Assembly: GCA_021794075.1 (NCBI GenBank)
Contig: JAJYRM010000004.1
Location: forward strand, 8,838 to 72,837
Length of the DNA: 64,000 nucleotides
Reading direction: 5' to 3'
Source: Bacteroidota bacterium
Lineage (GTDB): Bacteria > Bacteroidota > Ignavibacteria > Kryptoniales > JAKASW01
Of the stretch, positions 56 through 50,507 are shown piece by piece. Numbering within the stretch: the stretch's first letter is position 1; each line of letters starts with the position of its first letter. The notes under the pieces were generated by a model, which was not told the origin of the DNA, did not search any database, and was given only the letters and a program-made list of their open reading frames with translations. A program made the position numbers and the translations under genes.

Positions 56-1888
56 TCACTCCACCGTGACACTCTTCGCGAGGTTTCTCGGTTTGTCAAC
101 GTCACACCCTCGAAGAAGAGCGATATGATACGCGAGCAATTGAAGAGGGATGACGGAAAGGACGGGGTTAAGCGAATCGATCGTCTTGGGAATCGGGATT
201 ATGTATTCCGCCATCTTGTTAACGCGAGGGTCATCGTGGTCTACTATCGCGATGACTCTTCCCCCTCGTGCTTTTATTTCCTCCATATTGCCGACTACTT
301 TTCCATAGGTCTCGTCGCGCGGCGCAAGGAATACTACCGGCATTTCACTGTCAACTAGAGCGATCGGCCCATGTTTCATTTCGGCCGCGGGATATCCCTC
401 GGCATGTATGTACGAAATCTCCTTCAACTTTAACGCGCCTTCAAGCGCAACAGGGAAGTTGTATCCCCTTCCCAGGTAAAGAAAATTCCTCGACTCATAA
501 AAAGCTTCCGCAACCTCCCTGATGAAAGGATCAAGCTGCAATGCCTCCGACATAAGCCCCGGCAATTTTCGCAGCTCTGCGGAGATGGTTTTCAGATCCT
601 CGGATTCGGGGTTAAGGCCGCGTGTGACCGCGATCGTTAGCATACTAAGCGCCACAAGTTGGCACGTGAATGCCTTCGTGGAAGCGACTCCGATCTCAGG
701 GCCCGCGTGAATATAAATGCCCGCCTTGCTTTCGCGGGCGATGCTGCTTCCGACGACATTGCAAACCGCGAGGCAGGTGGCACCCTTCGCATTAGCCATC
801 CGAAGCGCGGCAAGAGTATCCGCCGTCTCGCCGCTCTGAGAAATCGCCACCACCACATCGCTATTGTCGACGACAGGGTCGCGATATCTGAATTCGGACG
901 CGTACTCGACTTCAACCGGAATTTTCGCGTATCTCTCAAGGAGGTATTTGCCGTAAAGGGCTGAGTGCCAAGACGTTCCGCATCCCGTGAGTATTATTCT
1001 CCTCGCCGACAATATTTTCGGCATGAGGTTCAGAAGTCCGCCCAATTTAACGCTGTCGTCATCGGTAGAGATTCTTCCTCGCATTACGTTTCCTAATGCT
1101 TCAGGCTGTTCGAAAATCTCCTTCTGCATGAAATGTTCGTAATTGCCTTTCCGTATATCGTCGGACACGAGAGTCAGCTGCTCCGACTGGCGGACTACCT
1201 CACGGTTCTCAAGGGTTCTGAGATCAATCCCCTCTTTCGAGATAAAAGCGATCTCTCCGTCAGAGAGGTGTATCACTTCCGAAGAGTAAGGAACAAGCGC
1301 CGCCTGATCTGATCCCACCATAAACTGCCCGTCTCCTATGCCGATCAGGAGCGGGCTTCCGTTTCTGGCGGCGACCAGACATCCCGGCGTTCCTGAATGT
1401 AAAATCGCCAGCCCGTAGGTTCCTTCCAGCTCGCCGAGCGCGGCAAGTACTGCCGCATCAATCGAGGCTTTTGTCTTCAGCTTCTCCTCGATGAGGTGGG
1501 ATATAACCTCCGAATCGGTCTCCGACGCGAACGTGTGTCCCTCTTCGACGAGTCGCTCCCGAAGGGAATAGTAGTTTTCGATTATCCCGTTGTGGACAAC
1601 CGCCACAGTTCCCGTGCAATCGAGATGCGGGTGTGCGTTGGAAACAGAAGGGACACCATGAGTCGCCCACCGCGTGTGAGCTATCCCAATATTCGAAGCC
1701 GGAAGCTTGCTTGCCGCCAACCTCGCGAGTCCGTCCACCTTCCCGGGACACTTTACGTCGTATATTTTCGAATCGCTAACTACAGCGACACCGGCCGAGT
1801 CATATCCGCGATACTCAAGATTGTAGAGTCCATTGACGAGAATCGGTATCGCCACCCTCTTACCTATGTAACCGACAATTCCACACAT
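56..1888 (-). CDS. glmS: Glutamine--fructose-6-phosphate aminotransferase (GlmS), canonical copy
   Basis: 610 aa. N-terminal MCGIVGYIG (Cys1 Ntn glutaminase) and HTRWATHG. Two SIS domains (CGTSWHSA, SQSGETADTL, VASTKAFT). Isomerase residues intact (ALKLKEIS, EMKHGP, C-terminal NLAKSVTVE stop). Confidence 0.95.
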   Translation of the reverse strand: MCGIVGYIGKRVAIPILVNGLYNLEYRGYDSAGVAVVSDSKIYDVKCPGKVDGLARLAASKLPASNIGIAHTRWATHGVPSVSNAHPHLDCTGTVAVVHNGIIENYYSLRERLVEEGHTFASETDSEVISHLIEEKLKTKASIDAAVLAALGELEGTYGLAILHSGTPGCLVAARNGSPLLIGIGDGQFMVGSDQAALVPYSSEVIHLSDGEIAFISKEGIDLRTLENREVVRQSEQLTLVSDDIRKGNYEHFMQKEIFEQPEALGNVMRGRISTDDDSVKLGGLLNLMPKILSARRIILTGCGTSWHSALYGKYLLERYAKIPVEVEYASEFRYRDPVVDNSDVVVAISQSGETADTLAALRMANAKGATCLAVCNVVGSSIARESKAGIYIHAGPEIGVASTKAFTCQLVALSMLTIAVTRGLNPESEDLKTISAELRKLPGLMSEALQLDPFIREVAEAFYESRNFLYLGRGYNFPVALEGALKLKEISYIHAEGYPAAEMKHGPIALVDSEMPVVFLAPRDETYGKVVGNMEEIKARGGRVIAIVDHDDPRVNKMAEYIIPIPKTIDSLNPVLSVIPLQLLAYHIALLRGCDVDKPRNLAKSVTVE

Positions 1889-10398: not shown

Positions 10399-10571
10399 TC
10401 CAGAAAGAATTGTAGACAAGCGGCTGGAAGACATCGCGTTGTTAGATTCGCGGGTCATCGACTCGAAGGACGGCTTACGATATTTCGTTTCGTAGGATGA
10501 CTGTCTAATCTGTAACAAGTTCTTAACCCTTCTTTCAAGTTTCCGTTCTTAAATGCTTGCAAGAAGAAAAG

Positions 10572-10587
10572 GTCAAGATGCGTGCCA
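10572..10587 (-). promoter_or_regulatory. sigma54-like -24/-12 element facing the wza-led operon
   Basis: Minus-strand reading tGGCACGcatcTTGAC. It has the GG/TTG spacing of TGGCACG-N4-TTGCW and lies about 50 nt upstream of the longest wza ORF start. Confidence 0.5.
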
Positions 10588-10823
10588 CGCGCAGAAGAGT
10601 GACTCCAATTTCGATTGTGACCTGAAAACAGCACCGATTGCGATAAATGGCAGCCCGGAATCGTTCGTTGCAGTTTTAAGACGATGATGCGCTGACGCCA
10701 TCATACACGCCGATACGAAGGTGACTGTCTCCTTCGTACACAAAAGGGCTGATGAAGCTCTTCAATGCATGATCGGAATCGCGAGTCCGAACGAATATTG
10801 CGGGAATTATCATCAAAGTTCCC

Positions 10824-10839
10824 CGGCACGCGCTTTGAG
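10824..10839 (+). promoter_or_regulatory. sigma54-like -24/-12 element facing the wzz-led operon
   Basis: cGGCACGcgctTTGAG, ending 27 nt before ATG 10867. A GAGAGGA Shine-Dalgarno lies between. Confidence 0.5.
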
Positions 10840-17377: not shown

Positions 17378-19228
17378 TCAAATTTCTGGCGCAGTTTGTT
17401 CCACTGTTACAATCCTGGCAGGATTGCTCCGCTTGTCGACTTTGCATCCCCTGAGCAGCGCGATATGATATGCGAGGAGCTGAAGCGGGACGATTGAGAG
17501 AATCGGAGCAAGCATGTCAAGCGTCTTCGGGATCCTGACTGTATATTTCGAGATTTTACGGACCCGGTCATCTTCCTCATCTATAACGGAGATCAAGCTG
17601 GCTCCGCGCGCCTTCACTTCCGCCATGTTTCTAACCACTTTTTCGTAAGTCGAGTCTCGAGGCGCGATGAAGATAACAGGCATACCATTTCTAACTGGCA
17701 TGGTCTGGATATTCCTCATTTCTGCCGCGGGAAATCCCTCGGCATGGATGCCCGAAATCTCTTTCAGCTCCATTGCCCCTTCCAGAGCTACGGGATAGTT
17801 GAAGCCGCGGCCGAGGTAAAGGAAGTTTTCCGAATCGGAGAAATCGTCAGCGATCTCGCGGATGTAGGGCTCAAGTTGGAGAGTTTCAGTCACGAGATCG
17901 GGTAGCCTGCATAGTTGTTTAGTGATCTCCAGCCATTCTTTGAATTCCAGTTCACACCCGCGGGTAATAGAAAGCGTGAGAAGCACGAGTGTAGCCATCT
18001 GTGATGTGAACGTCTGCGTGGAAACGCCACCCAATCCAGAGTCTGCATTTATAAATACGCCGGCATCACATTCACGGGCGATGGAGCTTCCGCCCGTGCT
18101 GTTGATTGCCAATGTCGCCGATCCTTTAGACCTGGCGATCCGGATCGCCGCCAGAGTGTCCAGGGTCTCACCGCTATGACTTATTGCCACTACCACATCT
18201 TCCTTTCCGACGACAGGGTTCCTGTCAGTGAAATCGGAAGAACGCTCCACGTCTACAGGTATCCTTAGGTACCTCTCGAGGACATACTTTCCGTACAGCG
18301 CGGAGTGCCATGAAGTTCCGGATCCTGTTACAACTATTCGTCTCGCTGAGAGCAATCTCGGCATAACGCGGAGGAGGCCGCCTGCGTTGGCGGTTTTATC
18401 CTCTTCGGATATACACCCTCGCAAGACATTGATAAGCGCGAAGGGCTGTTCGAAAATTTCTTTTTGCATGAAGTGATTGTAGCCGCCTCGCTGAATCTCT
18501 TCGGCCGACCGACTAACGTCATCCATGTCGAGATGTATTTCGGAATTTTCAAGTGTCCTGATGCTCACCCCTTCTCTCGTGATGAAGGCCGCCTGGCCGT
18601 CTGAGAGATGCACCACCTTCCCCGCATAAGGCACCAGAACAGCTTCATCGGAAGCCACAATAAATTGTCCCTCCCCCACACCGACCATAAGAGGGCTTCC
18701 CTTCCGGGCGGCGATCAGCAGGTCCGGAGAGCCGGAGTGCACGATGGCCAGAGCATATGTACCTTCCAGATCTGCGAGGGCAGCAAGAACTGCAGCTTCT
18801 ATCGTCTTGTTGTGCTTCGATTTTTCTTCGATTAAATGAGAGATCACCTCAGTATCCGTTTCCGATTTGAAAGAATGACCGAGCTCCGCTAATGATTCCC
18901 GGAGCGACGGAGAATTTTCGATGACGCCGTTGTGAACCATCGCTATAGATTGCGAACAGTCAAACTGAGGATGTGCGTTCTGAACCGAAGGGCCTCCATG
19001 TGTTCCCCAGCGCGTGTGAGCTATGCCGAGATCTGAGTCAGGTAGCCTTCCCACAACCGCACGCGCAAGGAATTCCACCTTTCCTGGACACTTGACACAG
19101 TGAATCTTCGAATTACTTACGACCGCGACTCCGGCCGAATCGTATCCGCGATACTCAAGATTGTAAAGTCCGTTCACAAGTATTGGTATGGCAATTCTGT
19201 TACCTATATATCCGACGATTCCGCACAT
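17378..19228 (-). CDS. Divergent GlmS paralog (glutamine amidotransferase + 2 SIS) with substituted isomerase catalytic residues
   Basis: 616 aa from MCGIVGYIG at 19228. Cys must be residue 1 after Met removal, so the 42-codon upstream extension in the ORF track is rejected. The glutaminase domain is intact. AMELKE, EMRNIQTMP and the C-terminus NPARIVTVEQTAPEI replace ALKLKE, EMKHGPIAL and NLAKSVTVE. Confidence 0.9.
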   Translation of the reverse strand: MCGIVGYIGNRIAIPILVNGLYNLEYRGYDSAGVAVVSNSKIHCVKCPGKVEFLARAVVGRLPDSDLGIAHTRWGTHGGPSVQNAHPQFDCSQSIAMVHNGVIENSPSLRESLAELGHSFKSETDTEVISHLIEEKSKHNKTIEAAVLAALADLEGTYALAIVHSGSPDLLIAARKGSPLMVGVGEGQFIVASDEAVLVPYAGKVVHLSDGQAAFITREGVSIRTLENSEIHLDMDDVSRSAEEIQRGGYNHFMQKEIFEQPFALINVLRGCISEEDKTANAGGLLRVMPRLLSARRIVVTGSGTSWHSALYGKYVLERYLRIPVDVERSSDFTDRNPVVGKEDVVVAISHSGETLDTLAAIRIARSKGSATLAINSTGGSSIARECDAGVFINADSGLGGVSTQTFTSQMATLVLLTLSITRGCELEFKEWLEITKQLCRLPDLVTETLQLEPYIREIADDFSDSENFLYLGRGFNYPVALEGAMELKEISGIHAEGFPAAEMRNIQTMPVRNGMPVIFIAPRDSTYEKVVRNMAEVKARGASLISVIDEEDDRVRKISKYTVRIPKTLDMLAPILSIVPLQLLAYHIALLRGCKVDKRSNPARIVTVEQTAPEI

Positions 19229-19540: not shown

Positions 19541-19556
19541 CTCAAGATGCGTGCCG
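19541..19556 (-). promoter_or_regulatory. sigma54-like -24/-12 element facing the divergent glmS paralog
   Basis: Minus-strand reading cGGCACGcatcTTGAG. It implies a leader of about 300 nt before ATG 19228. Confidence 0.45.
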
Positions 19557-19803
19557 CACCGGACGTTAATCCGAATCGGCTCGAAATAACACGCTACGTC
19601 GCATTAACGCGAACCAAAACGTGCCGCGGGCTTGAGATATATCTTTCGGTTGGCGATAGGACTGTTTCTCTATTACACATCGATCTTCCGCGATATGGTT
19701 CCGGTGTACACATAACCAGATTAACCGCCGCGAGGCGACTCTTTCAGAGCGGATAAAACGTCATCCGAGCCGACATTTTGCCAAAGGTCAATCATCCACG
19801 AAG

Positions 19804-19819
19804 CGGCACGTGCTTTGAG
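19804..19819 (+). promoter_or_regulatory. sigma54-like -24/-12 element facing the CelD-like/ComA-like-2 unit
   Basis: cGGCACGtgctTTGAG, ending 8 nt before the first ATG of the ORF (19828). Confidence 0.45.
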
Positions 19820-22035: not shown

Positions 22036-23481
22036 TCATTCGATTAAGACTAACTTCGTACTGGCCCTAAGTCTTCCCATCATCAGTGTGCAGATGTAAA
22101 CTCCGCTCGCGTGACCAAAACCGCTCCAGCTCAAATCGTGAGTGCCTGCCTGTATGTAGCCGGAATAAAGCGTGGCGACCCTTTGGCCGAGGACGTTATA
22201 TACCTCCACGTCAACATCCCCGGCAACGTTAATCACGAGAGGAATTGTAACGCTGCGACTAAAAGGATTCGGGTAAGGCTGTTGGAACTTCGCCGCAATG
22301 GGTGGCGGTGGCGTCGGGGGCAATGGCTTGGCTAAGAACTTGCTGAACTGTTGCTTGACTGTCTTCAAAAGCGGATATGTTCCATTCCCAGGATATCCCA
22401 TTCCCAGTTCGTAGAGAATTATTCCGCCGAGGCCTTTCTCTTTTATGTATTCGGCTTTAGCCGCGATGGAATTCGAATCGTCATATGAAATGAACAGCGC
22501 GTCGACGGGAAGGAGTGAAGGTATGCTTAGATAGCACGCCTCGGTCTTTGCATCCCAGTGGTAATACGACGAGCGATAATATTTCTGCATTATTCCCGTA
22601 GTATCGGGAGAATAGAGCGGTACATCATACTGGACCGACAGGAGTCCGTTAAGCAACTGACCAGGAAGATCTATCCCTTGCCACACGGTTCCTCCGAATT
22701 CGGCTCCTATCCCGAGCTTCGCGGCAGGTACCCCGGCGGCCTCGTATTTTCTTACCTCATCGTCAATAGAAGGGACGTATTCCTGGGTGCCGGGGAAAGT
22801 AATCCCGTCGTTGTATATAGGGCTGTTGAACCAACTTACCCAGCCGGGGAAATCGCCGGACATATCATAAGTCATTATGTTGATCTGGTCGAGATACTTC
22901 TGCGCGCTTGCCATGACCGTGCTGGACCCTGCGGTCGAAGTCAACGTATAATTCGGCCCGACCGAATCCCTGAGAGTTTTCACGAGTGCCACGAATTGCG
23001 AGTCATCCCCTTGACTGAGCGGTTCCCAATCGATGTCTATCCCGTTATACCCTCCGGCCCTGGCGAAGGTCACAAGGTTCGACACAAATTTGTTCAATAT
23101 CGCAGGCGCCGTGGCAGCCAGAAAATCTTTTTCGGTCGCCCAACCACCGATGCAAATCAAGACATTAGCCCCGGCGGCATGAGCGGCTTTAACGAGAGCG
23201 GCCCCTCCCTCCTTTGTGATATCGTTGTCGGCAGTGTCCAGGGTCCCATCCGGATTCGGAACGAGCGCGAAATAGACAACGTCGGTCATCGCGCTGAAAT
23301 CGACATCGGACACAGGGAGATATCCGTCGCTCCCTGTACCTAATTCCCATCCGCCATAATACGCGGTCACCCAATGTTGTTGCAACGGGCCGGCAATCAA
23401 CGGGACGCCGTTGAAGGGCATGACAATCAGCGCGGAGACTACCAGGCTCCAGCATAAGCACACTTCGATCTTCTTCATCAT
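22036..23481 (-). CDS. GH18 chitinase-like hydrolase with T9SS CTD (paralog 2)
   Basis: 481 aa. WVTAYYGGWE, CIGGW, YNGIDIDWE, MTYD, C-terminal PYPNPFSRS...STKLVLIE. Confidence 0.9.
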   Translation of the reverse strand: MMKKIEVCLCWSLVVSALIVMPFNGVPLIAGPLQQHWVTAYYGGWELGTGSDGYLPVSDVDFSAMTDVVYFALVPNPDGTLDTADNDITKEGGAALVKAAHAAGANVLICIGGWATEKDFLAATAPAILNKFVSNLVTFARAGGYNGIDIDWEPLSQGDDSQFVALVKTLRDSVGPNYTLTSTAGSSTVMASAQKYLDQINIMTYDMSGDFPGWVSWFNSPIYNDGITFPGTQEYVPSIDDEVRKYEAAGVPAAKLGIGAEFGGTVWQGIDLPGQLLNGLLSVQYDVPLYSPDTTGIMQKYYRSSYYHWDAKTEACYLSIPSLLPVDALFISYDDSNSIAAKAEYIKEKGLGGIILYELGMGYPGNGTYPLLKTVKQQFSKFLAKPLPPTPPPPIAAKFQQPYPNPFSRSVTIPLVINVAGDVDVEVYNVLGQRVATLYSGYIQAGTHDLSWSGFGHASGVYICTLMMGRLRASTKLVLIE

Positions 23482-23514
23482 TTACGAAGTACCAGCTCAT
23501 CCCAGCGAGAGAGG

Positions 23515-24786
23515 CTAATCACGCTGCCCTGCGCTCATCCTGATTTTTTTCATCCCATGGATCATCGAAAGCCGTTCAAGTGACTTGCCGAAAGCGTTGC
23601 CGGCCGCTTCCAGCAGAGGGTATTTCCCATCGCCGGGATATCCCCAGCCAAGCTCATACAAGATGATGCCGCCGAGTTTTTTCTTCTTCACATAGGCCGC
23701 CTTCGCCGCAATCGACGCCGAGTCATCATATGAAACAAACATATCGCCGGAATTTTGCCCCGCATGAATGCTTAGATAAGGCACCTTGGCGACCGGATCC
23801 CAATGTTCGTCAGACTTCGAATAGTATTTTTGCATTATTCCAGATCCATCGTGCCAGTAAAGCGGAACATCGAAGCGAACGGAAGGAGGAGATATCCATT
23901 TCTGGTCGGGCCTGGTCACTCCTTTCCCATCCATCATCACCCCTCCACGCCAAACTGCGCCGGCTAACTCCGCTCCGATACCGAGCTTTGAAGCCGGGAC
24001 ACCAGCGTCCGTGAATTTCTTGACGATGTTGTCGCACGCCGGTACCGGCTTCGACCAGCCTACAGTTATCCCGTCGTCATACAAGGCGCTGTTGTACCAT
24101 GTTACCCATCCATCCGATGGAAACGACAAGTCGTAAGTCATTAGATTTATTTCATCGAAATATTCGGACAACGAGGCCATTAGATTTTGAGACCCCGAAC
24201 TCGTGGCTGCGGTCAGGATGTACGGATGAGGTAGAGCCGCTCTTAATGCCTTCGTCAGATTTGCGTAAGCAGAAAAGTCGGAGTTGGTTAACGGCTCCCA
24301 GTCGATGTCCACGCCGTCGTAGTGACTTTTCCTCACGAACTTCACGATATTTCTCACGAAAGTGTCGAGTTCGGCTGGACGGGTCGCTCCTTCAAACAGC
24401 TTCTGAGTCTGCCAGCCACCTATCCCCATTATAACCGCAGTTCCTGCCGCGTGCGCCTCGCGTACCAGGGCGTTTGATCCCTCGCTGCTCATGTTGTCCG
24501 ACGTATCGATCGCGCCATTCGGGTAAGGAGTGAAGCCGAAATAGACCACGGCAGTCATGGAAGAGAAGTTGACTACGTTGATCGGAGGATTGCTGTTTGT
24601 GCCGTTGCCGACCTCCCAGCCGGGATAGTAACATGTGACCCAGTGTCGCGCCTGCGCGAAACAGTCGGACGCGGAAGATATGGAGAATATGACAGCGGCT
24701 GCCACGTACAACCATTGAATATTCGTTACCCGGCGTGCCGGGCTGCTCAGGCTATTCGAGCGTGAACATTCTGATCGATATTTCAT
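23515..24786 (-). CDS. GH18 chitinase-like hydrolase without T9SS CTD (paralog 3)
   Basis: 423 aa. WVTCYYPGWE, GIGGW, YDGVDIDWE, MTYD. It ends just after the catalytic domain, so no sorting domain. Confidence 0.85.
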   Translation of the reverse strand: MKYRSECSRSNSLSSPARRVTNIQWLYVAAAVIFSISSASDCFAQARHWVTCYYPGWEVGNGTNSNPPINVVNFSSMTAVVYFGFTPYPNGAIDTSDNMSSEGSNALVREAHAAGTAVIMGIGGWQTQKLFEGATRPAELDTFVRNIVKFVRKSHYDGVDIDWEPLTNSDFSAYANLTKALRAALPHPYILTAATSSGSQNLMASLSEYFDEINLMTYDLSFPSDGWVTWYNSALYDDGITVGWSKPVPACDNIVKKFTDAGVPASKLGIGAELAGAVWRGGVMMDGKGVTRPDQKWISPPSVRFDVPLYWHDGSGIMQKYYSKSDEHWDPVAKVPYLSIHAGQNSGDMFVSYDDSASIAAKAAYVKKKKLGGIILYELGWGYPGDGKYPLLEAAGNAFGKSLERLSMIHGMKKIRMSAGQRD

Positions 24787-24863
24787 CTGAAATAATCCTT
24801 TCGAGTTATAGTTGAGGCGATATCCATGTGGTCTAGATACGACCTCTTCCCTACTTGACCTTC

Positions 24864-26351
24864 TTATTTGAGAAGGACCATCTTTCTCATAATTGATACA
24901 TTATTTATACGCAAAGTGAATAGGTACACGCCGCTCGCGTCTCCGCTCCCGTTCCACTCCCTGGAGTACGAACCGGGCAAAAGGTAACTATCGATCAGGG
25001 TAGCGATTCTCTCCCCGAGAATATTGTAGATGTCGAGCGTGACGTGCGCCGGCGTGTCAATCCGGAATGAGATTGCGGTTACTGGATTAAATGGGTTGGG
25101 ATAGTTCTGATAAAGGCTTCCGAAAAGGCCTACATTACCGCTCGTGATCGGGACGTAGTACAGGAAGTCCGACTTGATCGACTGCAAAAGTGGATAAGAT
25201 CCATGCCCCGGATATCCCATCCCAAGCTCGTAAATAATGATTCCGCCGAGACCTTCCTTCCTGATGAATCGCGCCTTTGCTTCGATCGACGCTGAATCGT
25301 CATACGAAACGAAGCAAGCTGGTTTTCCCCGCTGCTGCGGAATGCTGAGATAACCAACTTGCGCCAGTGAGTCCCAGTGATAGTAATAAGGCTTGTAGTA
25401 ATGCTGCATTATTCCGGTGCTGTCATGTGAGTAAAGTGGCACATCATACATAACAGAATTGAGCGAAAATAGCGATTCGTCCGGTTCAGTTACGCCCGTC
25501 CAGACTGTCCCGCCAAGTTCCGCCCCGATACCGATTTTATCCGGAGCGACCCCCGCCTTTTCGAAGTTGTCAACGACCGCCTTAATGGAAGGGAGATGCG
25601 TCTTCAACCCCGGAAATTTCAGGCCGCCGTCGTAGACAGGCGAATTGAACCAAACGACCCATCCGCCTGTTGGAAAGGACATCTCATACGTCATAATATT
25701 TACTTGTTCAAAGTAATTCTGATCGAGTGACATAATCTTCTTATTACCGGGACTGCATGTTGTAGTTAGAAAATCAGCTTTTGAAATCGCCTTGAGAGAA
25801 TCGTGGAGCGCTCTGGCGAGTGCTGTGAAGGGATAGTAATCCTGAGCGTTGATTGGTTCCCAGTCGATGTCTATTCCGTCGAATTTATTTACCCTGACGA
25901 AGTCGATAAGATTTCGGACGAACTCGCTGAGGTGCCCGGTATCGGTAGCGCGCTCGAAGTCTGTTCCGCTTCCGGCTCCTCCGACGCATATCAACACTTT
26001 CGCGGAGGCGGAGTGCGCCGCGCGAATGAGTTTCTCCGTCCCTTCACTAGTGATTCCATTTGTGGATGTATCAATCGTGCCGTCGGCGTTCGGCACAAGA
26101 GCGAAATCTATAACATCGGTGAAGGCGGAAAAGTCGACATCAGAAACAGGGAGATAACCGTTCGAGCCGTTACCGAGTTCCCAGGCTCCGTAATAAGCCG
26201 TTACCCAATGAGCCGGCTCAGCGTCACAGAATTTCGGTACACATAAGAACGATGACATCATTACAGAAACCAATGAAATGAAAGCCCGCGCAAGATCGCT
26301 TCGCGCGAGCATGGATAAATAGGAATCGGAGCCAACTGATGGTGTATTCAA
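24864..26351 (-). CDS. GH18 chitinase-like hydrolase with T9SS CTD (paralog 4)
   Basis: 495 aa. WVTAYYGAWE, CVGGA, FDGIDIDWE, MTYE, CTD QNYPNPFNPVT...MRKMVLLK. Confidence 0.9.
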   Translation of the reverse strand: MNTPSVGSDSYLSMLARSDLARAFISLVSVMMSSFLCVPKFCDAEPAHWVTAYYGAWELGNGSNGYLPVSDVDFSAFTDVIDFALVPNADGTIDTSTNGITSEGTEKLIRAAHSASAKVLICVGGAGSGTDFERATDTGHLSEFVRNLIDFVRVNKFDGIDIDWEPINAQDYYPFTALARALHDSLKAISKADFLTTTCSPGNKKIMSLDQNYFEQVNIMTYEMSFPTGGWVVWFNSPVYDGGLKFPGLKTHLPSIKAVVDNFEKAGVAPDKIGIGAELGGTVWTGVTEPDESLFSLNSVMYDVPLYSHDSTGIMQHYYKPYYYHWDSLAQVGYLSIPQQRGKPACFVSYDDSASIEAKARFIRKEGLGGIIIYELGMGYPGHGSYPLLQSIKSDFLYYVPITSGNVGLFGSLYQNYPNPFNPVTAISFRIDTPAHVTLDIYNILGERIATLIDSYLLPGSYSREWNGSGDASGVYLFTLRINNVSIMRKMVLLK

Positions 26352-26712
26352 TTTCCGCTACTCCAATGCAATGTCGTTAGCAGGCCCCGATGGTGGTGAT
26401 GCCCAGCCTGCCATCGCCGGATTTCACTCCTGATCGAGTTTAAAACCAGTCGGTTCGGTCAAGCTGGGTGAACTTACCGTGGACCCGCCCTCGCGAGCCG
26501 TCCGATAACTTGGCGGCTTGTTCATGACGGCCCCTCCTTCGACTTGGCTCCGTGGGACCTGGCAAGAATATATCATCAATCCTCAGGCCGGAAGATTCTG
26601 ACGATTATTCATCGAATCGCTGCAGGCCGCGTATATATTTTACACGCTCATTCCGGAGAATTGGTTAGGTGGTACACATTTACGGCGAACGAGGCGGCTC
26701 GTCGGGAGGTAC

Positions 26713-26745
26713 AAAAAAAAGGTCGCCCCATTTCTGAGGGCGACC
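26713..26745 (-). terminator. Rho-independent terminator after the large GH18 gene
   Basis: Minus strand: GGTCGCCC-tcagaaat-GGGCGACC followed by T8 (plus-strand A8 at 26713-20). A second 7-bp hairpin (gctcggc/gccgagc, 26770-26790) lies between it and the stop codon. Confidence 0.75.
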
Positions 26746-26806
26746 CCGCGAACATTTCAATTTATGGCAGCTCGGCAGAGTGAGCCGAGCCTGTCTCATC
26801 GAGTCG

Positions 26807-29800
26807 TCACTTTATTAGAATCATCTTCTTAATCATGGCTTTGTTGCCTGCCATCAGTCTGTAGAAATAAACTCCGCTCGCGCAACTCGAACCATTCCAC
26901 ACCGCAGAATGCATTCCAGCGCTCATGTAACTATCGACCAGCGTTGACACCTGCTGGCCGAGCGTGTTGTACACCTTGAGCGTAACATGCGCTGCTTCCG
27001 GTACAGAAAACATAATCGTTGTAGTCGGGTTGAAAGGATTCGGATAGTTTTGCTCCAGGGCAAACTTCGAGGGCGTTTGCACCGAGGCGACAGTATCTAT
27101 TCCGGTAGCCGTCAGCGAACTGGAGGCATTGTTCAATTGCAGATTGTCCAGATAGTATGTCTCGGTTTGGCTGCTGTTCTCCGAAATGTCGATCCGGTCA
27201 AATTGCTGATTAGACGGATTTAGACTGCTCATCGGTACCGTTATCAATGTCCATTTATTAGCGTGAACACTCCCGACAGAGACGGCCTGGAATGAGGTTC
27301 CCGCGTCGCTTTCAAGTCCAACTGTGAAGGACATCTTCGAGCTAGTGTAGACCTCGAACTGGACTGCGCTGTAAAGAGCCGGGTTTATGTACTCCCCGGA
27401 ATTCCACGCGCCATAATGGAGACTCGCCGCTCCCCATTCACCTTGTACAACTGAAATCGAGGAGCTTCCGCCGTAAACCGGGCTGGTGTTTGAGAAGTTG
27501 AGCGTGGCATTCCATGAGGCGTCCATCCACGGAGACTGGAGCGCATCCTGGTAAATTGCCAGGCCGGGAACGGAAGCCACCGAAGGTATTTTGAAGACCC
27601 AGGGGGAAGACCAATTGCTCGTCAAGCTGCCGGAGCTCGCGTCGGCGCGCCAGTAATACGTGTTTCCCGCCTGCAAATTGTTTACGGTAAGGGAATCCGT
27701 CGTCAGGTTGGCGCTATCGACAACGGTCGAAGAGAAAGTACTGTCCGTCGATACCTGTAGTCGGCAGGATGTGGCTCCCGAAGGTATTTTCCATGTCAAC
27801 GTCACCGGGGATGTGACAGTGGAATCAGCTTCGGCAGGTAGCAAGAGTGTCGGCGCCGGAATCGTGGTCAGCTGCAGATTATCGATATAGTAAGTTATTG
27901 GATTGCCGCTCGCGTCTTCGATTACAAGCATGGTGAAGACCTGGTTCGTCGGATCGAGCTCCGACATCGGAATAGTGATGCTTGTCCAGTGATCCGCGGA
28001 AACCGTGCCATAATTGACAGTCGGGAACGTGACTCCCGTCGGACCGCCCATAAGGAACACCGCAAGGTCGATAGAAGAAGCGGAATAGATGTCGAATGTA
28101 ACGTCGGAATACTGCGCCGGGTCAACATTCACCAACGCATTCCATCCTCCGGAAAGGAGCCTGAAACCGCCGGAAGCATTCTGTGCGACGCTAACGGACG
28201 CGGTGCATCCGCTGTAAACTATAGATGTGTTTGCGAAATCGTCAGTCACGTTCCACGAACCATCCGACCAGTTCGACGCCAGCTGGTTCTGGTAAATCCA
28301 AGTCCCCGAAGTGCTGGCTGCGCTAGAGGCGACGGTATTAGAGACCGTTACCGTTACTGAACTGGTTGCTGTGTTACCTGCCGCGTCGCTCGCAACCGCT
28401 GATATCGTGTGGGTGCCGTTTGACAGACCGGATGTGGCCAATGTAGTGGTGTACGGCGAGGTAGTAATAGCGCTTCCATAATTCGTTCCGTCGATCTTAA
28501 ATTGCACGCCAGTTACGCCGACATTGTCGCTGGCGTTTGCTGAAAGCGATATGGTCCCGGACACGGTCGATCCGCTCGAGGGCGACGTGACAGAAACAGT
28601 CGGCGCGGTTGTATCCTTGGTCGAGAGGATGTTTGAAACATTCACGGTGATCGACGCAGTCGAAGAATTGCCCGCGGCGTCCGTTGCCGTCGCGCTTATC
28701 GTGTGCGTGCCGTTAGTTAGCGTCGTAGTGAGAAGGCTTGCTGTAAACGGAGCAACACTGATTGTCGATCCGATCAAACTGCCATCCACTTTGAACGTAA
28801 CGCCTGTAACTCCGACGTTATCGGAAGCGTTAGCCGAAATTGACAGAGTGCCGGACACCGTCGCGCCGTTCGTCGGCGAGGAAATCGAAATAGAGGGAGG
28901 AATCGTGTCGGTCGGCACCGCTGTAGTACCGCCGCCCATCTCTTTCTTCACGTACGCCAGCAAGGGATAAGTGCCGTTGCCCGGGTATCCCATGCCGAGA
29001 GAATAGATGATCAATCCGCCGAGTCCCTTGCTGTTTATGTAGTTAAACTTGGCATTGACATCGCTCGTGTCTTCAAAGCTTATGAAGTAATCGCTGGAGT
29101 TGGTCGAGCCGGTCGTGCTGAGGTAAGACGCCTGGGCCTGACTGTCCCAGTGATAGTCCTGGGCATTGTAATATTTTTGCATGATTCCGGAGCCGTCCGA
29201 CGCATAAAGGGGCACGTCTTCCTGTACGGTGGGAGCTGTTGACCATGCCTGGTTTGGTCCGGTTACACCGGCGCCGTTCGTCATCGTGCCGCCGTTCCAC
29301 ACTGTCCCGGCGAACTCGGAGCCTATGCCGAGTTTAGATGCGGACACACCGGCGCTTTCATAACTGGCAACCTGTGAATTGACGTTGGATGAAGCTTCCG
29401 ACCCGTTTGTTGAGGCCGTGCCGTAAGAATATACAGAGCTGTTGTACCATGACACCCATCCCTGCCACGGGCCGGCCATATCGTATGTCATGATATTTAT
29501 CTGGTTAACTTCCGACTGGACGGCCGCCATCGCGGTAGGATCTCCGGCAGTCGTCGTAATCAGATAGGAGCTCCCCAGCGCGGAGCGAAGAGCCTTAATC
29601 AGCGCCTCGTACTGCGCGTCGTCGGTTGAGGCTTCCGGTTCCCAGTCGATATCTACGCCGTCCATATTATTGTTCTTTACAAAAGCGACGATGTTAGAGA
29701 CGAACGTGTTAAGGTTCGTCGAGTTCGTGGCGCCCTGGAATCCGCTCTCGGTATTCCATCCGCCAACGCAGATAAGCACTTTGGTGCCGCTGGCATGCGC

Positions 29801-30082
29801 CGCTGTGGTAAGCGCCGTGGCACCGGTTGTCGAAATGCCGTTGCTCGCTAAATCGAGCGATCCGTCCGCGTTAGGCACGATCGCGAAATAGACAACGTCG
29901 GTCATCGCGCTAAAATCGACATCTGCGACCGGCATGTACCCGTTTGATCCATCTCCTAACTCCCACCCGCAATAATAAGCAGTCACCCACGGCTTGGCCT
30001 GTACTTTCGCTGCCGCAATCGACATGAGAAATATCAGCGCCGCGGTCAACAAACCTCGGTATCTATTCTCGAACTTTTTCAT
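26807..30082 (-). CDS. Multidomain GH18 (paralog 5): GH18 + 2 Ig-like + CBM-like + FN3-like + CBM-like + T9SS CTD
   Basis: 1091 aa. WVTAYYCGWE, CVGGW, MDGVDIDWE, MTYD. Two repeats ..SGT(L/I)S(I/L)SANASDNVGVTGV.FK(V/I)DG... One YYWRADAS FN3-like module of the same type as in 2499-6572. CTD QNYPNPFNPTT...IKKMILIK. AAGGAG Shine-Dalgarno. Confidence 0.9.
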   Translation of the reverse strand: MKKFENRYRGLLTAALIFLMSIAAAKVQAKPWVTAYYCGWELGDGSNGYMPVADVDFSAMTDVVYFAIVPNADGSLDLASNGISTTGATALTTAAHASGTKVLICVGGWNTESGFQGATNSTNLNTFVSNIVAFVKNNNMDGVDIDWEPEASTDDAQYEALIKALRSALGSSYLITTTAGDPTAMAAVQSEVNQINIMTYDMAGPWQGWVSWYNSSVYSYGTASTNGSEASSNVNSQVASYESAGVSASKLGIGSEFAGTVWNGGTMTNGAGVTGPNQAWSTAPTVQEDVPLYASDGSGIMQKYYNAQDYHWDSQAQASYLSTTGSTNSSDYFISFEDTSDVNAKFNYINSKGLGGLIIYSLGMGYPGNGTYPLLAYVKKEMGGGTTAVPTDTIPPSISISSPTNGATVSGTLSISANASDNVGVTGVTFKVDGSLIGSTISVAPFTASLLTTTLTNGTHTISATATDAAGNSSTASITVNVSNILSTKDTTAPTVSVTSPSSGSTVSGTISLSANASDNVGVTGVQFKIDGTNYGSAITTSPYTTTLATSGLSNGTHTISAVASDAAGNTATSSVTVTVSNTVASSAASTSGTWIYQNQLASNWSDGSWNVTDDFANTSIVYSGCTASVSVAQNASGGFRLLSGGWNALVNVDPAQYSDVTFDIYSASSIDLAVFLMGGPTGVTFPTVNYGTVSADHWTSITIPMSELDPTNQVFTMLVIEDASGNPITYYIDNLQLTTIPAPTLLLPAEADSTVTSPVTLTWKIPSGATSCRLQVSTDSTFSSTVVDSANLTTDSLTVNNLQAGNTYYWRADASSGSLTSNWSSPWVFKIPSVASVPGLAIYQDALQSPWMDASWNATLNFSNTSPVYGGSSSISVVQGEWGAASLHYGAWNSGEYINPALYSAVQFEVYTSSKMSFTVGLESDAGTSFQAVSVGSVHANKWTLITVPMSSLNPSNQQFDRIDISENSSQTETYYLDNLQLNNASSSLTATGIDTVASVQTPSKFALEQNYPNPFNPTTTIMFSVPEAAHVTLKVYNTLGQQVSTLVDSYMSAGMHSAVWNGSSCASGVYFYRLMAGNKAMIKKMILIK

Positions 30083-30537
30083 TTGTTCTCCTTGCTTTGT
30101 AATCCGTTGCTCGAAGCATCATTAACGGAATCGATGTTGTTCTTGACAGCCTTCTCATAGGAGAGAGCCGTCAGGCAATCGATGAATTGGTTCAGTTGAG
30201 TCGTGAGGCTGAATACGAATGTGGCGCCCGCTTCCTTCCAGACTTCCTCTCCCGCCGAGTTGAACGGCAGAGTCAGCACTACAATAATCACATCCGGATT
30301 GATTCGCCGGATTACCGGGACCACGCCTGTTCCCAGGCGTCCGAATTTCGGGAGCACTACGACTACCACATCTGGACAAGTTGATAGGACTTCGCACACG
30401 ACGTTGACTTCATCAGCTACGTCGCTTACGCATTCGACATTCGGGATTTCCGAAATGATCGCTCGAAGTTTCGGGCGCATTATCTCCGAATCGGTGGCTA
30501 GTAAAATTCTCATCATATTCTCACGCCTGTTTTTCAT
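30079..30537 (-). CDS. Stand-alone receiver-fold protein lacking the phospho-acceptor Asp (pseudo-receiver)
   Basis: 152 aa. CheY-like layout (RILLATDS...PDVVVVVLPKFG...IIVVLTLP...FVFSL), but the D57-equivalent is Val/Leu and the K109-equivalent is Ser. The stop overlaps the GH18 start in an ATGA (30079-30082). Confidence 0.65.
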   Translation of the reverse strand: MKNRRENMMRILLATDSEIMRPKLRAIISEIPNVECVSDVADEVNVVCEVLSTCPDVVVVVLPKFGRLGTGVVPVIRRINPDVIIVVLTLPFNSAGEEVWKEAGATFVFSLTTQLNQFIDCLTALSYEKAVKNNIDSVNDASSNGLQSKENK

Positions 30538-30796: not shown

Positions 30797-31097
30797 GCCG
30801 GGGATGGTTGAATAGAAGTTGGGTTCGAAAAGGAAGAGGGTCAGATGTTTTGGGGATGAGGATAGAGCTCTGTGCAGTTATGCCAAGTATAGTATCGCGA
30901 CTTTCGACTCAACGGAGTTGAGCAACAGAAACCCGATACTAACCACCATGCTCTGTGGCGCTTTCCCGACTACGAAGTAAACGGCGATGAGCGGGCACTG
31001 ACACTGTCTTACTCAGCGAGACTTTCACCTCCGCGGCGAGGCGGCTTCGATCACGCAATCCTGGCCTCGTTTCGCGCGCCTCTCGGCCGCGCTGTGG

Positions 31098-31113
31098 TGG
31101 CACAGGGTTTGAG
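31098..31113 (+). promoter_or_regulatory. sigma54-like -24/-12 element upstream of the BNR/FN3 T9SS cargo gene
   Basis: tGGCACAgggtTTGAG. It follows the same pattern as the six paired copies and lies about 245 nt upstream of ATG 31360. Confidence 0.4.
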
Positions 31114-31210: not shown

Positions 31211-31272
31211 ACCTCTACAGGCTCATCGCAGGTGATCACATTTTCCTGAAGAACATATTGCTGGTGAAATAA
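31211..31272 (+). repeat. Orphan copy of the last 62 nt (T9SS CTD end + stop) of gene 31360-33402
   Basis: 31211-31253 is identical over 43 nt to 33341-33383. The remaining 19 nt have 5 mismatches. It encodes ..LYRLIAGDHIFLKNILLVK* against ..LYRLIAGDHIFLKKMMLVK*. There is no similarity 5' of the repeat. Confidence 0.85.
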
Positions 31273-31359: not shown

Positions 31360-33402
31360 ATGAAAAATATAATCAAGATACCGATGCTCGTCGCACCAAT
31401 CTTCTTTCTCTCTACCTTCTTCACAAGCGCTGCCTTTGCGCAGCAGGGATGGGTACCCGAGAAGAGCGGAACGTCAAATAATCTCTACGCCGTCTCTTTT
31501 CCCGATACAATGACTGCATACGTCGTCGGCGCCGGCGGCGCAATACTAAAGAGCACAGACGGAGGAGTGACCTGGACAAGCCAGACGAGCGGAACAACTC
31601 AGTCCCTGCTGGGGATTACTTTCACAAATGTCGACACCGGAACCGTTGTCGGCGGCGGCGGAACGATTCTACACACCACAAATGGCGGAGTGACGTGGCT
31701 GAAACAAACCAGCGGCACAGGTACCAACCTCCGTGCGGTTTCCTTCTTCCACGGCAACAACGGTATGGCAGTGGGAGACGGAGGAACAATACTCTACACA
31801 AGCGACGGTGGTACGACATGGAATAGGCAGAACAGTGGAGTAACAAACAAACTGACGGGCGTCTCATCCGTAAATGACAGCACATGGGTAGCAGTAGGAG
31901 TCGGGACACCTTTTGGCGGTTCCAGCGGCGAAGCTCCCGTTCTACGCACAACAAATGCGGGAAGTACCTGGAATCAGGTAACCAATATATACAGGTTGCA
32001 AACAAGACAACTGGAGACGCTAAATGCTGTCTCCTTTAGAAGTAATCTTGGACTTGCCGCTGGATACTCTGAAGGGCAAACCGGATTAACGGGACCTATC
32101 GAATTCATCACCAGCGACGGAGGCGCCTCCTGGAACGAGAAGAGCGAAGGCGCATCACTTCATGGCTGCTCCTATGCGGAGGCATCAGCATGGTATGCAG
32201 TCGGATATCCGGGGATGATCGTTCGAAACGGCGCCGTCCAAACTCTCGGAAGAGCTAATCAATACGCTACGTTGAATGCCGTGGCATTTGCGAACGGCGC
32301 TAAAGGTATTGTTCTAGCAGGGAACACAATCCTTAGAACAACCGACGGCGGGATTGCCCCTCCGTATGCTCCCGCATTAGCTGTGCCCGCAAACGGTACA
32401 ACAAATTCTCCTACAAATCCATCTTTCAAGTCTACAGATTCATGCTGGGTAACCGGCTCACGCATACAAATATCGCCGGACAGCAGTTTCCTGTCAGTAG
32501 TCTATGATACTTCGCACGGACCTGGCGCATACGGCAGTGTTCAAGTGTACCAGGCGCAGGGGCTCGCACAAGGTACCACTTACTATTGGAGAGTCAGAAC
32601 AAGCAATGCTTACGGGAACAGCCCGTGGTCTCAAGTCTGGCACTTCACGACTCAAGGTAATCCTGATCTGGCGGTCTACGACTCGACTCTCCAGTCTCCA
32701 TGGACCGATGTGTCGTGGGGAGCTTCCGTTACCTACACCGACTCCAACGCCATCAGCGTAAATGCCGACGCATGGGGAGCCCTGAGTCTGCTCGACGGTT
32801 CCTGGAGCACTCAGGACTCGGTCAACCCTTCCATGTACACCAGCTTCAACTTCTCCTTCATGGGCACACAGGAGTTCGGCGTCTTCCTCCAGACCGATTC
32901 AGGACAGTCCCTTCCCTGCGTCGATACCACGCTTACAGAATCAGGGTGGGTAAATGTATCCATTCCGGTGAGCCAACTCGACCCCAACGGCACAAAATTC
33001 AGCAGGCTGACATTCCAGTCCGATGAGGCATCTGCCTACCGGTTCTATGTAAGAGACTTGAGGTTTGTCGGACTCGGGCAGTCATCCAAGGCATTCAGAC
33101 AATTGTCTCCTTTGGCCGGAGTCGGTACGGAAGTTCCAAAATCATTCAGCCTCGCACAGAACTATCCCAACCCGTTCAATCCCACAACGACGATCGACTA
33201 TCAGATCCGCAACCCGAGCCACGTCTCGCTGACCGTCTATGATGTACTCGGCAGAGTTGTTCAAACGCTGGTCAACACAAACCAGCAGGCTGGATCGTAT
33301 TCAGTCTCCTTCAACGCTTCCGGCCTTGCCAGCGGTGTGTACCTCTACAGGCTCATCGCAGGTGATCACATTTTCCTGAAGAAAATGATGTTGGTGAAAT
33401 AG
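31360..33402 (+). CDS. T9SS-secreted protein: BNR/Asp-box (Ycf48-like) propeller + FN3-like + CBM-like + CTD
   Basis: 680 aa. Signal peptide. Five Asp-boxes (STDGGVTW, TTNGGVTW, TSDGGTTW, TTNAGSTW, TSDGGASW). One TTYYWRVRTS module. CTD QNYPNPFNPTT...LKKMMLVK. Confidence 0.9.
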   Translation: MKNIIKIPMLVAPIFFLSTFFTSAAFAQQGWVPEKSGTSNNLYAVSFPDTMTAYVVGAGGAILKSTDGGVTWTSQTSGTTQSLLGITFTNVDTGTVVGGGGTILHTTNGGVTWLKQTSGTGTNLRAVSFFHGNNGMAVGDGGTILYTSDGGTTWNRQNSGVTNKLTGVSSVNDSTWVAVGVGTPFGGSSGEAPVLRTTNAGSTWNQVTNIYRLQTRQLETLNAVSFRSNLGLAAGYSEGQTGLTGPIEFITSDGGASWNEKSEGASLHGCSYAEASAWYAVGYPGMIVRNGAVQTLGRANQYATLNAVAFANGAKGIVLAGNTILRTTDGGIAPPYAPALAVPANGTTNSPTNPSFKSTDSCWVTGSRIQISPDSSFLSVVYDTSHGPGAYGSVQVYQAQGLAQGTTYYWRVRTSNAYGNSPWSQVWHFTTQGNPDLAVYDSTLQSPWTDVSWGASVTYTDSNAISVNADAWGALSLLDGSWSTQDSVNPSMYTSFNFSFMGTQEFGVFLQTDSGQSLPCVDTTLTESGWVNVSIPVSQLDPNGTKFSRLTFQSDEASAYRFYVRDLRFVGLGQSSKAFRQLSPLAGVGTEVPKSFSLAQNYPNPFNPTTTIDYQIRNPSHVSLTVYDVLGRVVQTLVNTNQQAGSYSVSFNASGLASGVYLYRLIAGDHIFLKKMMLVK

Positions 33403-34409: not shown

Positions 34410-35054
34410 TCACTCTATCAGATGTTTTTCGATCGCGTACATGGTGAGCTCAGTGACGCTTTTCATATTCATTTTTTCCATAACTCTCGATTTGTAAGTG
34501 TTGACGGTATGGATACTAATGGAAAGTTCGTCGGCGATTTCCTTGACCTTCTTCCCCTGGGCGAGTGCTCGCATTATTTGGAACTCCCTGTTCGAGAGGA
34601 CCTCGTGCGGCTGCTTCTCGAGATCTCTATCGAGTTCGGAAGCAAGCTGTTCGGCCAGCGAACCCGTAATGTATTTTTTCTTTTTCGCCAGGGTGCGGAC
34701 AGCCGCGATGATTTCCTCGGGGGCGGTCTCTTTCGTCAGATAGCCTGATGCTCCTGACTTCAAAGCGCGAACGGCGAAGCGTTCCTCCGGGTGCATTGTC
34801 AATACAAGGATGGGAAGCTTCGGATAGCGATGCTTCAGGTCGCCCAGAAGGCTCAGAGTTCCTTTGCCCGGCATCGAGAGGTCAGTTATAAGCACATCGG
34901 GTTCGGCCTTCTCGACCCCGTCAAGGAGTTCCTGTTCGTTGGACCCCTCGCCTATCACCTTGAGATCGCCTTCCGCCTCGAGGATTTCCCTGAGTCCTTT
35001 CCTGACCAGCGGATGATCGTCGGCAATAAAAAGTCTAATCATGTGTTCATTCAA
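34410..35054 (-). CDS. NarL/LuxR-family response regulator (REC + HTH)
   Basis: 214 aa. IADDHPLV, PDVLITDLSMPG, VLVLTMH, GYLTKE. HTH LSNREFQIMRALAQGKKVKEIADELSISIHTVNTYKSRVMEKM. Confidence 0.9.
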   Translation of the reverse strand: MNEHMIRLFIADDHPLVRKGLREILEAEGDLKVIGEGSNEQELLDGVEKAEPDVLITDLSMPGKGTLSLLGDLKHRYPKLPILVLTMHPEERFAVRALKSGASGYLTKETAPEEIIAAVRTLAKKKKYITGSLAEQLASELDRDLEKQPHEVLSNREFQIMRALAQGKKVKEIADELSISIHTVNTYKSRVMEKMNMKSVTELTMYAIEKHLIE

Positions 35055-35074: not shown

Positions 35075-35090
35075 CTCAACATCTGTGCCA
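35075..35090 (-). promoter_or_regulatory. sigma54-like -24/-12 element facing the response-regulator gene
   Basis: Minus-strand reading tGGCACAgatgTTGAG, ending 20 nt before ATG 35054. Confidence 0.4.
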
Positions 35091-35313
35091 TCACGCTTCG
35101 AGGGTTCACCCCCGCAAATTCTCATTGTATTACGGCAAAATCATAGAGACAGGGTTAGTCAGCCGCCTGAGTGTGTATTTTGGATACTTGCCCAAAGCCA
35201 TCGGTGGTGCCGATGCACACACCAGATTCCAATTTATTGCGACTCACAATTCGGCACATGCGGATTCAAGCCTCAATTGCGAAGTCAGCGCGAGATTTCC
35301 CGGGTAATCCTCA

Positions 35314-35329
35314 CGGCATGTCCTTTGAG
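35314..35329 (+). promoter_or_regulatory. sigma54-like -24/-12 element facing the 12-kb Wzy-to-acetyltransferase operon
   Basis: cGGCATGtcctTTGAG, 88 nt upstream of a 55-codon ORF (35418) and 263 nt upstream of ATG 35593. Confidence 0.45.
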
Positions 35330-35417: not shown

Positions 35418-35585
35418 ATGCTCCCAGAGATAACGATATTAATTCTGATCGGCATCGTCATAATGCTCGCTCAGCATGAGGAGCGAGGCGGTATACGGAA
35501 GTACGTGATCATCGGGACGATCGCACTTCTTCAGACCGTGCTCGTTGTTCTGGAAATGTACATCATGAAAGTTCCGAAGTTATAG
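35418..35585 (+). CDS. Possible small two-TM membrane protein (55 aa, below ORF-track cutoff)
   Basis: ATG 35418 to TAG 35585: MLPEITILILIGIVIMLAQHEERGGIRKYVIIGTIALLQTVLVVLEMYIMKVPKL. Two hydrophobic helices. It ends 7 nt before the Wzy-like gene. No homology evidence. Confidence 0.3.
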   Translation: MLPEITILILIGIVIMLAQHEERGGIRKYVIIGTIALLQTVLVVLEMYIMKVPKL

Positions 35586-50129: not shown

Positions 50130-50507
50130 ACTCCTTATCCGCTCAAACGGCGTGTGACGCAGGCGACTACCCCGCCTTGCGCGCCGCCAATTTACCGATT
50201 TATCCCTGAAAGCTATCTCTCACGATGGCACATTATCGGAGTAGATATTAAGATAACACGGTACACTTGTCCGCGGTTCCGCATGCAGCGTTGGCGACTA
50301 ATATTTGACAACATTTACCGAACGTATATGGTGGTACAGCACGCGTGTACTTCATACACACAATCGAGCTCAACCGAAAGTATCCAAGAAATAATCAAAA
50401 TAAGTATTGCATCTACTCGAACTATTGCCTATTCTACGTTTGGTAGAATACAGATAGGGACACCCGGTATTTCGTGTTGGCAATCTTAAACAAACACCTG
50501 GGCGTCC

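Follow-up and report, generated by a model that had tools for sequence, protein, structure and literature searches.

Divergent pairs of sigma-54 promoters that share one enhancer are known from the zraP/zraSR and hyc/hyp regions of E. coli. The C of the -12 GC is nearly invariant in sigma-54 promoters, and mutations in the -12 region can loosen their dependence on an activator. That sigma-54 can govern exopolysaccharide genes is well established (PMC3162934), and the sigma-54 regulon predicted for the Myxococcia is enriched in proteins for polysaccharide export (PMC12316311). Among described systems the sigma-54 regulatory region of proteobacterial PEP-CTERM/EpsH loci appears, by analogy of design, to be the closest to the locus described here. 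In these PEP-CTERM/EpsH (XrtA) loci a 17-nt motif ending TTTACA, sometimes repeated, is followed by a sigma-54 motif, and the loci combine a Fis-type sigma-54 activator, PrsR, and PrsK with a link to exopolysaccharide (Haft et al., 2006; PMC1569441). The motif was reported from Proteobacteria only (PMC1569441). [quoted passage not shown]

We examined a 64-kb stretch of DNA (the window, meaning the whole stretch analysed) in which a sequence-only reading had pointed out seven copies of a 16-mer resembling a sigma-54 -24/-12 element. These seven 16-mers are very probably sigma-54 (RpoN) promoters, with which the bacterium, a Kryptoniota-like member of the FCB group, would control an exopolysaccharide regulon. 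We favour this reading because the sites are orthologous to canonical promoter pairs in other lineages, A and C interchange at -12 between orthologous arms, an activator with an intact GAFTGA loop is linked to the locus, and conserved enhancer-like sites lie about 104-162 bp from the promoters.

The window has a GC content of 52% and carries a polysaccharide locus with many secreted proteins bearing type IX secretion (T9SS) sorting domains. The wza operon runs on the minus strand from 10518 down to 56 and encodes Wza, a PorV-like protein, a WecA fusion, a giant fn3/T9SS protein, a 182-aa protein and a second GlmS. Genes for Wzz, a tyrosine kinase, an aminotransferase and ComA-like proteins follow on the plus strand from 10867, and the window further encodes GlmS, four GH18 proteins, a NarL/GerE-type response regulator, Wzy, Wzx, glycosyltransferases and a deacetylase. 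Homologues are labelled Candidatus Kryptoniota, and in the species collection the nearest genome is that of 'Bacteroidetes bacterium MAS4.bin38' (locus L001), with protein identities of 81-93%. Genome scans with single proteins returned one to three close relatives apiece, and a Wzz scan of the JGI metagenomes gave no match. Two glmS paralogues are present, one at the end of the wza operon (56-1888, minus strand) and one with its own motif (17378-19228, minus strand). An ORF at 61713-63953 (minus strand) starts in the middle of a protein-kinase domain (positions 164-253 of the Pkinase model align to residues 1-82), and its start may be miscalled or the gene disrupted. No Rfam family reached the gathering threshold over the window.

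A scan of both strands of the 64-kb window with the pattern GGCAYR-N4-TTGAS (GGCAYRNNNNTTGAS) returned exactly seven matches, the same seven that the sequence-only reading had listed. Shuffled sequence is expected to hold 0.20 matches and none of 100 shuffles reached seven, which agrees with the earlier estimate of less than one occurrence by chance. The motif is sharply bounded, since tolerating one mismatch added only two sites, a chance-level yield. With a weight matrix trained on the relatives' sites only, the seven sites scored 16.4-25.6 bits and the next best match in the window 10.0. No canonical TGGCAC-N5-TTGC site was found in the window. Only 8.5% of the window is non-coding on the gene map of this analysis, and all seven sites are intergenic and face the adjacent gene (about 3e-8 under random placement), as had been described; the window holds no copy inside coding sequence or in random orientation. 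Three of the five divergent intergenic regions in the window are each filled by one inverted motif pair, as the sequence-only reading had it, with arms about 225-250 bp apart (240-262 bp in that reading). Of the other two regions, one has just the unpaired site at 31099, and one, which lies at 50130-50507 and beyond the polysaccharide genes, has no site. The GGCA(C/T) block with its GG, the -24 element, is present at 7/7 window sites and in all arms in relatives, and exactly five bases separate GGCAY from TTG at every window site and in 63 related loci. In the -12 element TTG is invariant and the C is replaced by A at all seven sites, so none reads TTGC(W); both the RpoN spacing and the unusual -12 base were thus correctly seen at the outset. 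The proposal that the motif drives almost every transcription unit of the locus stood in part: about 7 of the roughly 10 units in 1-47 kb carry it, but the GH18 operon (22036-30537) and the gene at 47256-50129 do not. The seven putative promoters are as follows.

10572-10587 (pattern match 10572-10586), minus strand: promoter facing the wza operon, tGGCACGcatcTTGAC, 25.6 bits
10824-10839 (pattern match 10825-10839), plus strand: promoter of wzz, cGGCACGcgctTTGAG, 23.0 bits, kept in relatives
19541-19556 (pattern match 19541-19555), minus strand: promoter of glmS, 24.6 bits, kept in L001
19804-19819 (pattern match 19805-19819), plus strand: promoter of two hypothetical genes and a ComA-like gene, 22.4 bits, kept in L001
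31098-31113 (pattern match 31099-31113), plus strand: unpaired promoter of a BNR/T9SS gene (31360-33402), 16.4 bits, the weakest match
35075-35090 (pattern match 35075-35089), minus strand: promoter of the NarL/GerE-type response regulator (34410-35042, ATG at 35042) and an acetyltransferase, 21.8 bits, kept in L164 and L165
35314-35329 (pattern match 35315-35329), plus strand: promoter of a 55-aa ORF and of the wzy, wzx, glycosyltransferase and deacetylase genes to about 47245, 22.6 bits

The wzz promoter ends 27 nt before the ATG (wzz start 10867). The glmS reading frame truly begins at 19228, so that about 312 nt of leader separate it from its promoter. This leader contains no glmS ribozyme or other Rfam family (one Rfam match was at chance level) and folds no better than shuffled sequence (z = -1.07). 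Behind the promoter at 19804 the likely start codon is at 19885, with AAGGAG ahead of it. An eighth copy of the motif (TGGCACAGCTGTTGAGT, of the TTGAG type) is found outside the window, about 9 kb to its left (L161 position 20780), ahead of a gene for a PAS protein.

Three further observations concern the DNA just downstream of these sites. At about 10500-10570, immediately downstream of the wza promoter (in the 5' leader or first codons), identity to the relative is about 90%, higher than in the adjoining coding sequence, and this stretch may hold an extra regulatory signal. Between the 31099 promoter and its gene, 61 nt at 31211-31271 are 93% identical to 33341-33401, which is the 3' end (the T9SS sorting-domain tail) of the gene at 31360-33402; apparently an upstream paralogue was deleted here, and its promoter and this fragment stayed in place. 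An unannotated 55-aa ORF (35418-35585, plus strand; MLPEITILILIGIVIM...) lies between the promoter and wzy. Two hydrophobic segments are predicted in this putative membrane peptide, which is kept in two other Kryptoniota genomes with codon-like variation and has no Pfam match.

An alignment query with Wzz yielded 79 loci from Kryptoniota, Ignavibacteria, Balneolales, Latescibacterota and others. A back-to-back (T/C)GGCA(C/T)-N5-TTGN pair was found at the same relative positions in the wza/wzz divergent region of 63 of the 75 loci examined, and these 63 span Kryptoniota, Ignavibacteria, Balneolales and Latescibacterota. Comparison of orthologous loci, which the sequence-only reading had suggested, found the arms retained, with interiors that share two short elements. 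Textbook TGGCAC-N5-TTGCA (TGGCACATCAATTGCA) occurs in many of the distant arms, including many from Ignavibacteria and Balneolales. The glmS pair is kept in MAS4.bin38 and the wzy pair in two further Kryptoniota genomes (L164 and L165). When other Kryptoniota loci were scanned with a promoter matrix whose -12 and -11 columns had been neutralised, few sites apart from the wza/wzz pair emerged.

The base that follows TTG was A in 22, T in 5 and C in 3 of 30 Kryptoniota-like arms, against C in 50, T in 44, A in 11 and G in 3 of 108 arms from other lineages. The interchange is visible within a single promoter: the wza arm reads TTGAC in the window (GGCACGCATCTTGAC) and TTGCG in an 85%-identical relative (GGCACGCATGTTGCG in L081/L082). 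Because many orthologous arms elsewhere are canonical and the -12 C is not fixed in the wider group, the -12 A appears to be a lineage trait of otherwise orthologous sigma-54 promoters and not evidence against sigma-54. One possible explanation, which we offer tentatively, is that sigma-54 in Kryptoniota, and less markedly in Ignavibacteria and Balneolales, reads the -12 element with relaxed or shifted specificity and accepts TTGA or TTGT for TTGC. Either the helix-turn-helix that reads -12 would have co-evolved, or the fork-junction 'lock' would work without a conserved C. If true, this would be a natural, lineage-wide variant of an element regarded as nearly invariant.

A gene for a 344-aa enhancer-binding protein was located 2-3 kb left of window position 1 (L161 13847-14881, minus strand), on the same contigs as the leftmost gene of the window. 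The protein consists of Sigma54_activat, AAA_lid_14 and HTH_8 (Fis-type HTH) domains with an intact GAFTGA loop (ELFGHERGAFTGA), and it matches the structures of NtrC1, ZraR and PspF with E values down to 4e-86. Domain-model alignments to the protein begin at residue 32-36, with no N-terminal sensory domain ahead of them, so its activity is presumably set in trans. The sequence-only reading had found no enhancer-binding AAA+ activator encoded in the window, and there is none within it; such a gene, whose presence in the genome it had proposed to confirm, adjoins the locus just past the left end. Orthologues with 68-89% identity are apparently linked to Wzz orthologues in about six Kryptoniota-like assemblies, where the contigs reported for the two have the same lengths. 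In seven loci that are more distant, Balneolaceae for the most part, orthologues with 46-56% identity lie less than 10 kb from wzz. Next to a second wza operon (L167) there is a paralogue with 72% identity. Searches for GAFTGA/ESELFGH in the window, L001 and L081-L160 returned activators in the non-Kryptoniota loci only. The activator gene itself has no motif ahead of its start. A search of the window and of the related loci L001 and L081-L160 gave no RpoN box, and no rpoN-like gene is among the annotated window genes; the intact GAFTGA loop of the activators suggests that the genome has one.

The neighbours of the activator gene form a dense regulatory island at L161 12486-21750, about 0.6-10 kb left of window position 1. 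Two PAS histidine kinases are encoded there, one of the PAS-HisKA_3 and one of the RsbU_N-PAS type, together with a GerE-type regulator, a SpoIIE phosphatase, an RsbW-like kinase, two STAS proteins and the PAS protein whose own TTGAG-type motif is at 20780. The trio of kinase, regulator and activator is repeated beside the second wza operon in L167. In this paralogous locus a good motif match (CGGCATATCCTTTGACC; L167 12344, minus strand) lies inside a histidine-kinase coding region, about 330 nt upstream of a GerE-type regulator gene, and may be an internal promoter or a chance occurrence. A second Sigma54_activat protein, in which the GAFTGA loop is replaced, occurs in many loci of Ignavibacteria, Balneolales and related groups (for example L158 7176-7919 and L140 6923-7810, both minus strand, L104, L097, L106, L109 and about 25 others). 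It is encoded on the wza-operon side, 2-3 kb upstream of wzz, and has a Fis-type HTH in some loci and not in others. These proteins recall GAFTGA-less regulators such as VpsR; the window encodes none.

The pair interiors, which the sequence-only reading had called unconserved, indeed show no overall homology, but they contain two conserved elements of 17-19 bp at fixed positions. Footprinting in an alignment of 16 Kryptoniota-like wza/wzz regions identified two central elements, cTGt-N11-ACA, ending TACACA. Across 64 pair interiors TGT-N11-ACA occurred 50 times, against none for the N10 and four for the N12 spacing, and the full element is a palindrome, TGTGT-N9-ACACA. The candidate upstream activator sites (UAS) in the window are listed below.

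10692-10710, plus strand: candidate UAS of the wza/wzz pair, CTGACGCCATCATACACGC, form TGn-N11-AC(A/G), from footprint, matrix and geometry
10725-10743, plus strand: second candidate UAS of the wza/wzz pair, CTGTCTCCTTCGTACACAA, same form and evidence
19662-19680, plus strand: candidate UAS of the glmS pair, CTGTTTCTCTATTACACAT, kept in L001
19695-19713, plus strand: second candidate UAS of the glmS pair, ATGGTTCCGGTGTACACAT, kept in L001
35171-35189, unstranded: candidate UAS of the third pair, an inverted TACACA site, from geometry
35204-35222, unstranded: second candidate UAS of the third pair, GTGGTGCCGATGCACACAC, from geometry

The two sites are spaced 33 bp apart in each pair. Measured from the site centres, the wzz -12 base is 137 and 104 bp away and the wza -12 base 128 and 161 bp. 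For the glmS pair the distances are 147 and 114 bp to the right-hand -12 base and 129 and 162 bp to the left-hand one, and for the third pair they are 104 and 137 bp to the left promoter and 148 and 115 bp to the right one. The distances are therefore discrete (104/137, 114/147 and 128/161 bp) across three non-homologous regions and their orthologues. At the unpaired 31099 promoter only weak UAS-like matches were found (30966-30984 and 30998-31016), at the expected 137 and 105 bp. The central TGT-N11-ACA sites are probably a shared enhancer, judging from their conservation and geometry. The neighbouring activator is a plausible binder, and the nearby GerE-type response regulators are alternative candidates. 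The UAS matrix also matched sites with no sigma-54 motif near, namely a pair 32 bp apart between GH18 genes (26629-26647 and 26661-26679) and a palindromic site (50343-50361) in the divergent region 50130-50507. These may be chance matches, or the same regulator may act at other promoters.

From this arrangement we infer sigma-54 binding, the transcription starts, the binder of the central sites and co-induction, in the following scheme. Six of the seven sites form three divergent cassettes of about 270 bp. In each, the two central sites, 33 bp apart, are flanked by promoters, one about 104-128 bp from site 1 and the other about 104-115 bp from site 2. Sigma-54 RNA polymerase would occupy each arm as a closed complex. 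A hexamer of the activator would attach by its Fis-type HTH to the two central TGT-N11-ACA sites and then, by looping the DNA and hydrolysing ATP, open both outward-facing promoters. Co-induced in this way would be wza for export, wzz and the tyrosine-kinase gene for chain-length control, glmS for precursor supply, wzy and wzx for polymerase and flippase, and the response-regulator gene, and the adjacent kinases, response regulator and partner-switching genes may set the activity of the activator in trans.

Three other accounts of the 16-mers were weighed against this scheme. The best of them, which we nevertheless consider unlikely, accepts that the sites descend from sigma-54 promoters and holds that the -12 A weakens the 'lock', so that the promoters are weak, leaky or partly independent of the activator, or that another promoter type nearby is dominant. 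The A at 7/7 window sites and in 22/30 arms in relatives fits such a weakening, mutations in the -12 region being able to loosen activator dependence, and the strongly conserved stretch just downstream of the wza arm could hold other signals. Against it, the -24 element, the spacing and the TTG are under strong purifying selection across genera, and the retention of an intact GAFTGA activator together with conserved enhancer-like sites would make little sense if activation were dispensable. Decidedly less probable is that the 16-mers are operators of an unrelated DNA-binding protein or are read by another sigma factor (an ECF sigma or the Bacteroidota -33/-7 type), with a coincidental likeness to sigma-54 elements. 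Such a factor would account for the missing -12 C and for the lack of an rpoN gene in the window and the related loci scanned. It is difficult to reconcile with blocks only five bases apart, where elements of the sigma-70 family are separated by about 16-19, with sites that are orientation-specific relative to genes, with orthologous sites in other lineages that are perfect sigma-54 consensus, or with a sigma-54 activator linked to the locus. That the three inverted pairs, about 225-250 bp apart, are terminal repeats of a small mobile element (MITE) or the closing stem of a long RNA can be dismissed, as the sequence-only reading had already done, since the interiors are non-homologous bar the two short sites and the pairs keep fixed orthologous positions across several FCB lineages; the arms moreover are only about 16 bp long, two copies are unpaired (31099 in the window and 20780 in L161) and there is no Rfam match.

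The sigma-54 reading supplies a testable regulatory model for a polysaccharide (biofilm matrix) in an uncultured lineage, naming its promoters, enhancer sites, activator and operons. The divergent cassette is common to several FCB lineages, and one experiment could thus inform many genomes. As a tentative, subsidiary proposal, the fixed-geometry divergent cassette with its dedicated domain-less activator would be an ancient regulatory module of FCB polysaccharide loci. The natural C-to-A and C-to-T changes at -12 could be used to study how sigma-54 recognises the -12 fork junction and locks it. Scans for sigma-54 regulons that demand TTGC would miss these promoters, and a matrix-based sigma-54 survey itself notes the limitation of missing non-TTGC promoters (PMC12316311).

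With canonical sigma-54 promoters (TGGCACG-N4-TTGCW) the sites have in common the GGCA(C/T) block and its exact distance from TTG, a gene-facing upstream position, an AAA+ activator with GAFTGA whose gene is linked, and candidate enhancer sites at 100-160 bp upstream. They differ in having A at -12 in all window copies and in about 73% of the arms in Kryptoniota relatives, in having G or C instead of A or T after the -12 base, and in a first T that is often C. Arms from Ignavibacteria and Balneolales carry C or T at -12 in about equal numbers, in contrast to the canonical C. Like zraP/zraSR and hyc/hyp, the cassettes place two outward-facing sigma-54 promoters around central activator sites; unlike them, the geometry is reused at least three times in one locus and kept across several FCB lineages. 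The activator resembles PspF and HrpR/HrpS in consisting of an AAA+ domain and a C-terminal HTH with no N-terminal sensory domain. It is, however, not a PspF orthologue (277 bits, below the cut-off of 443.55), and no PspA- or HrpV-like partner was identified. Its neighbours encode histidine kinases, a GerE-type regulator and an RsbU/RsbW/STAS-type module.

The resemblance to PEP-CTERM/EpsH loci may extend to the regulatory DNA: the motif there ends TTTACA by its published description, and the sites here end TACACA (TTTACACA in Balneolaceae). XrtA-system models are also the best match of the window Wza, Wzz and kinase, but below their cut-offs. In PEP-CTERM loci the promoters drive single PEP-CTERM genes, whereas here divergent pairs drive biosynthesis and export operons. 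No PEP-CTERM protein or exosortase EpsH/XrtA is encoded within the window, and the secreted proteins carry T9SS sorting domains instead. The locus is a relative by design of the PEP-CTERM/EpsH system and not a member, because its activator falls short of the PrsR model (TIGR02915; 307 bits against a cut-off of 502.6, with only model positions 140-443 aligned), lacks a receiver domain, and T9SS sorting takes the place of PEP-CTERM sorting. In mechanism these promoters appear, from their sequence features, to be of the ordinary sigma-54 type. What seems to set them apart is the consistent -12 A, the reuse of a divergent cassette of fixed geometry, and the conservation of this cassette with a dedicated, domain-less activator across several FCB lineages.
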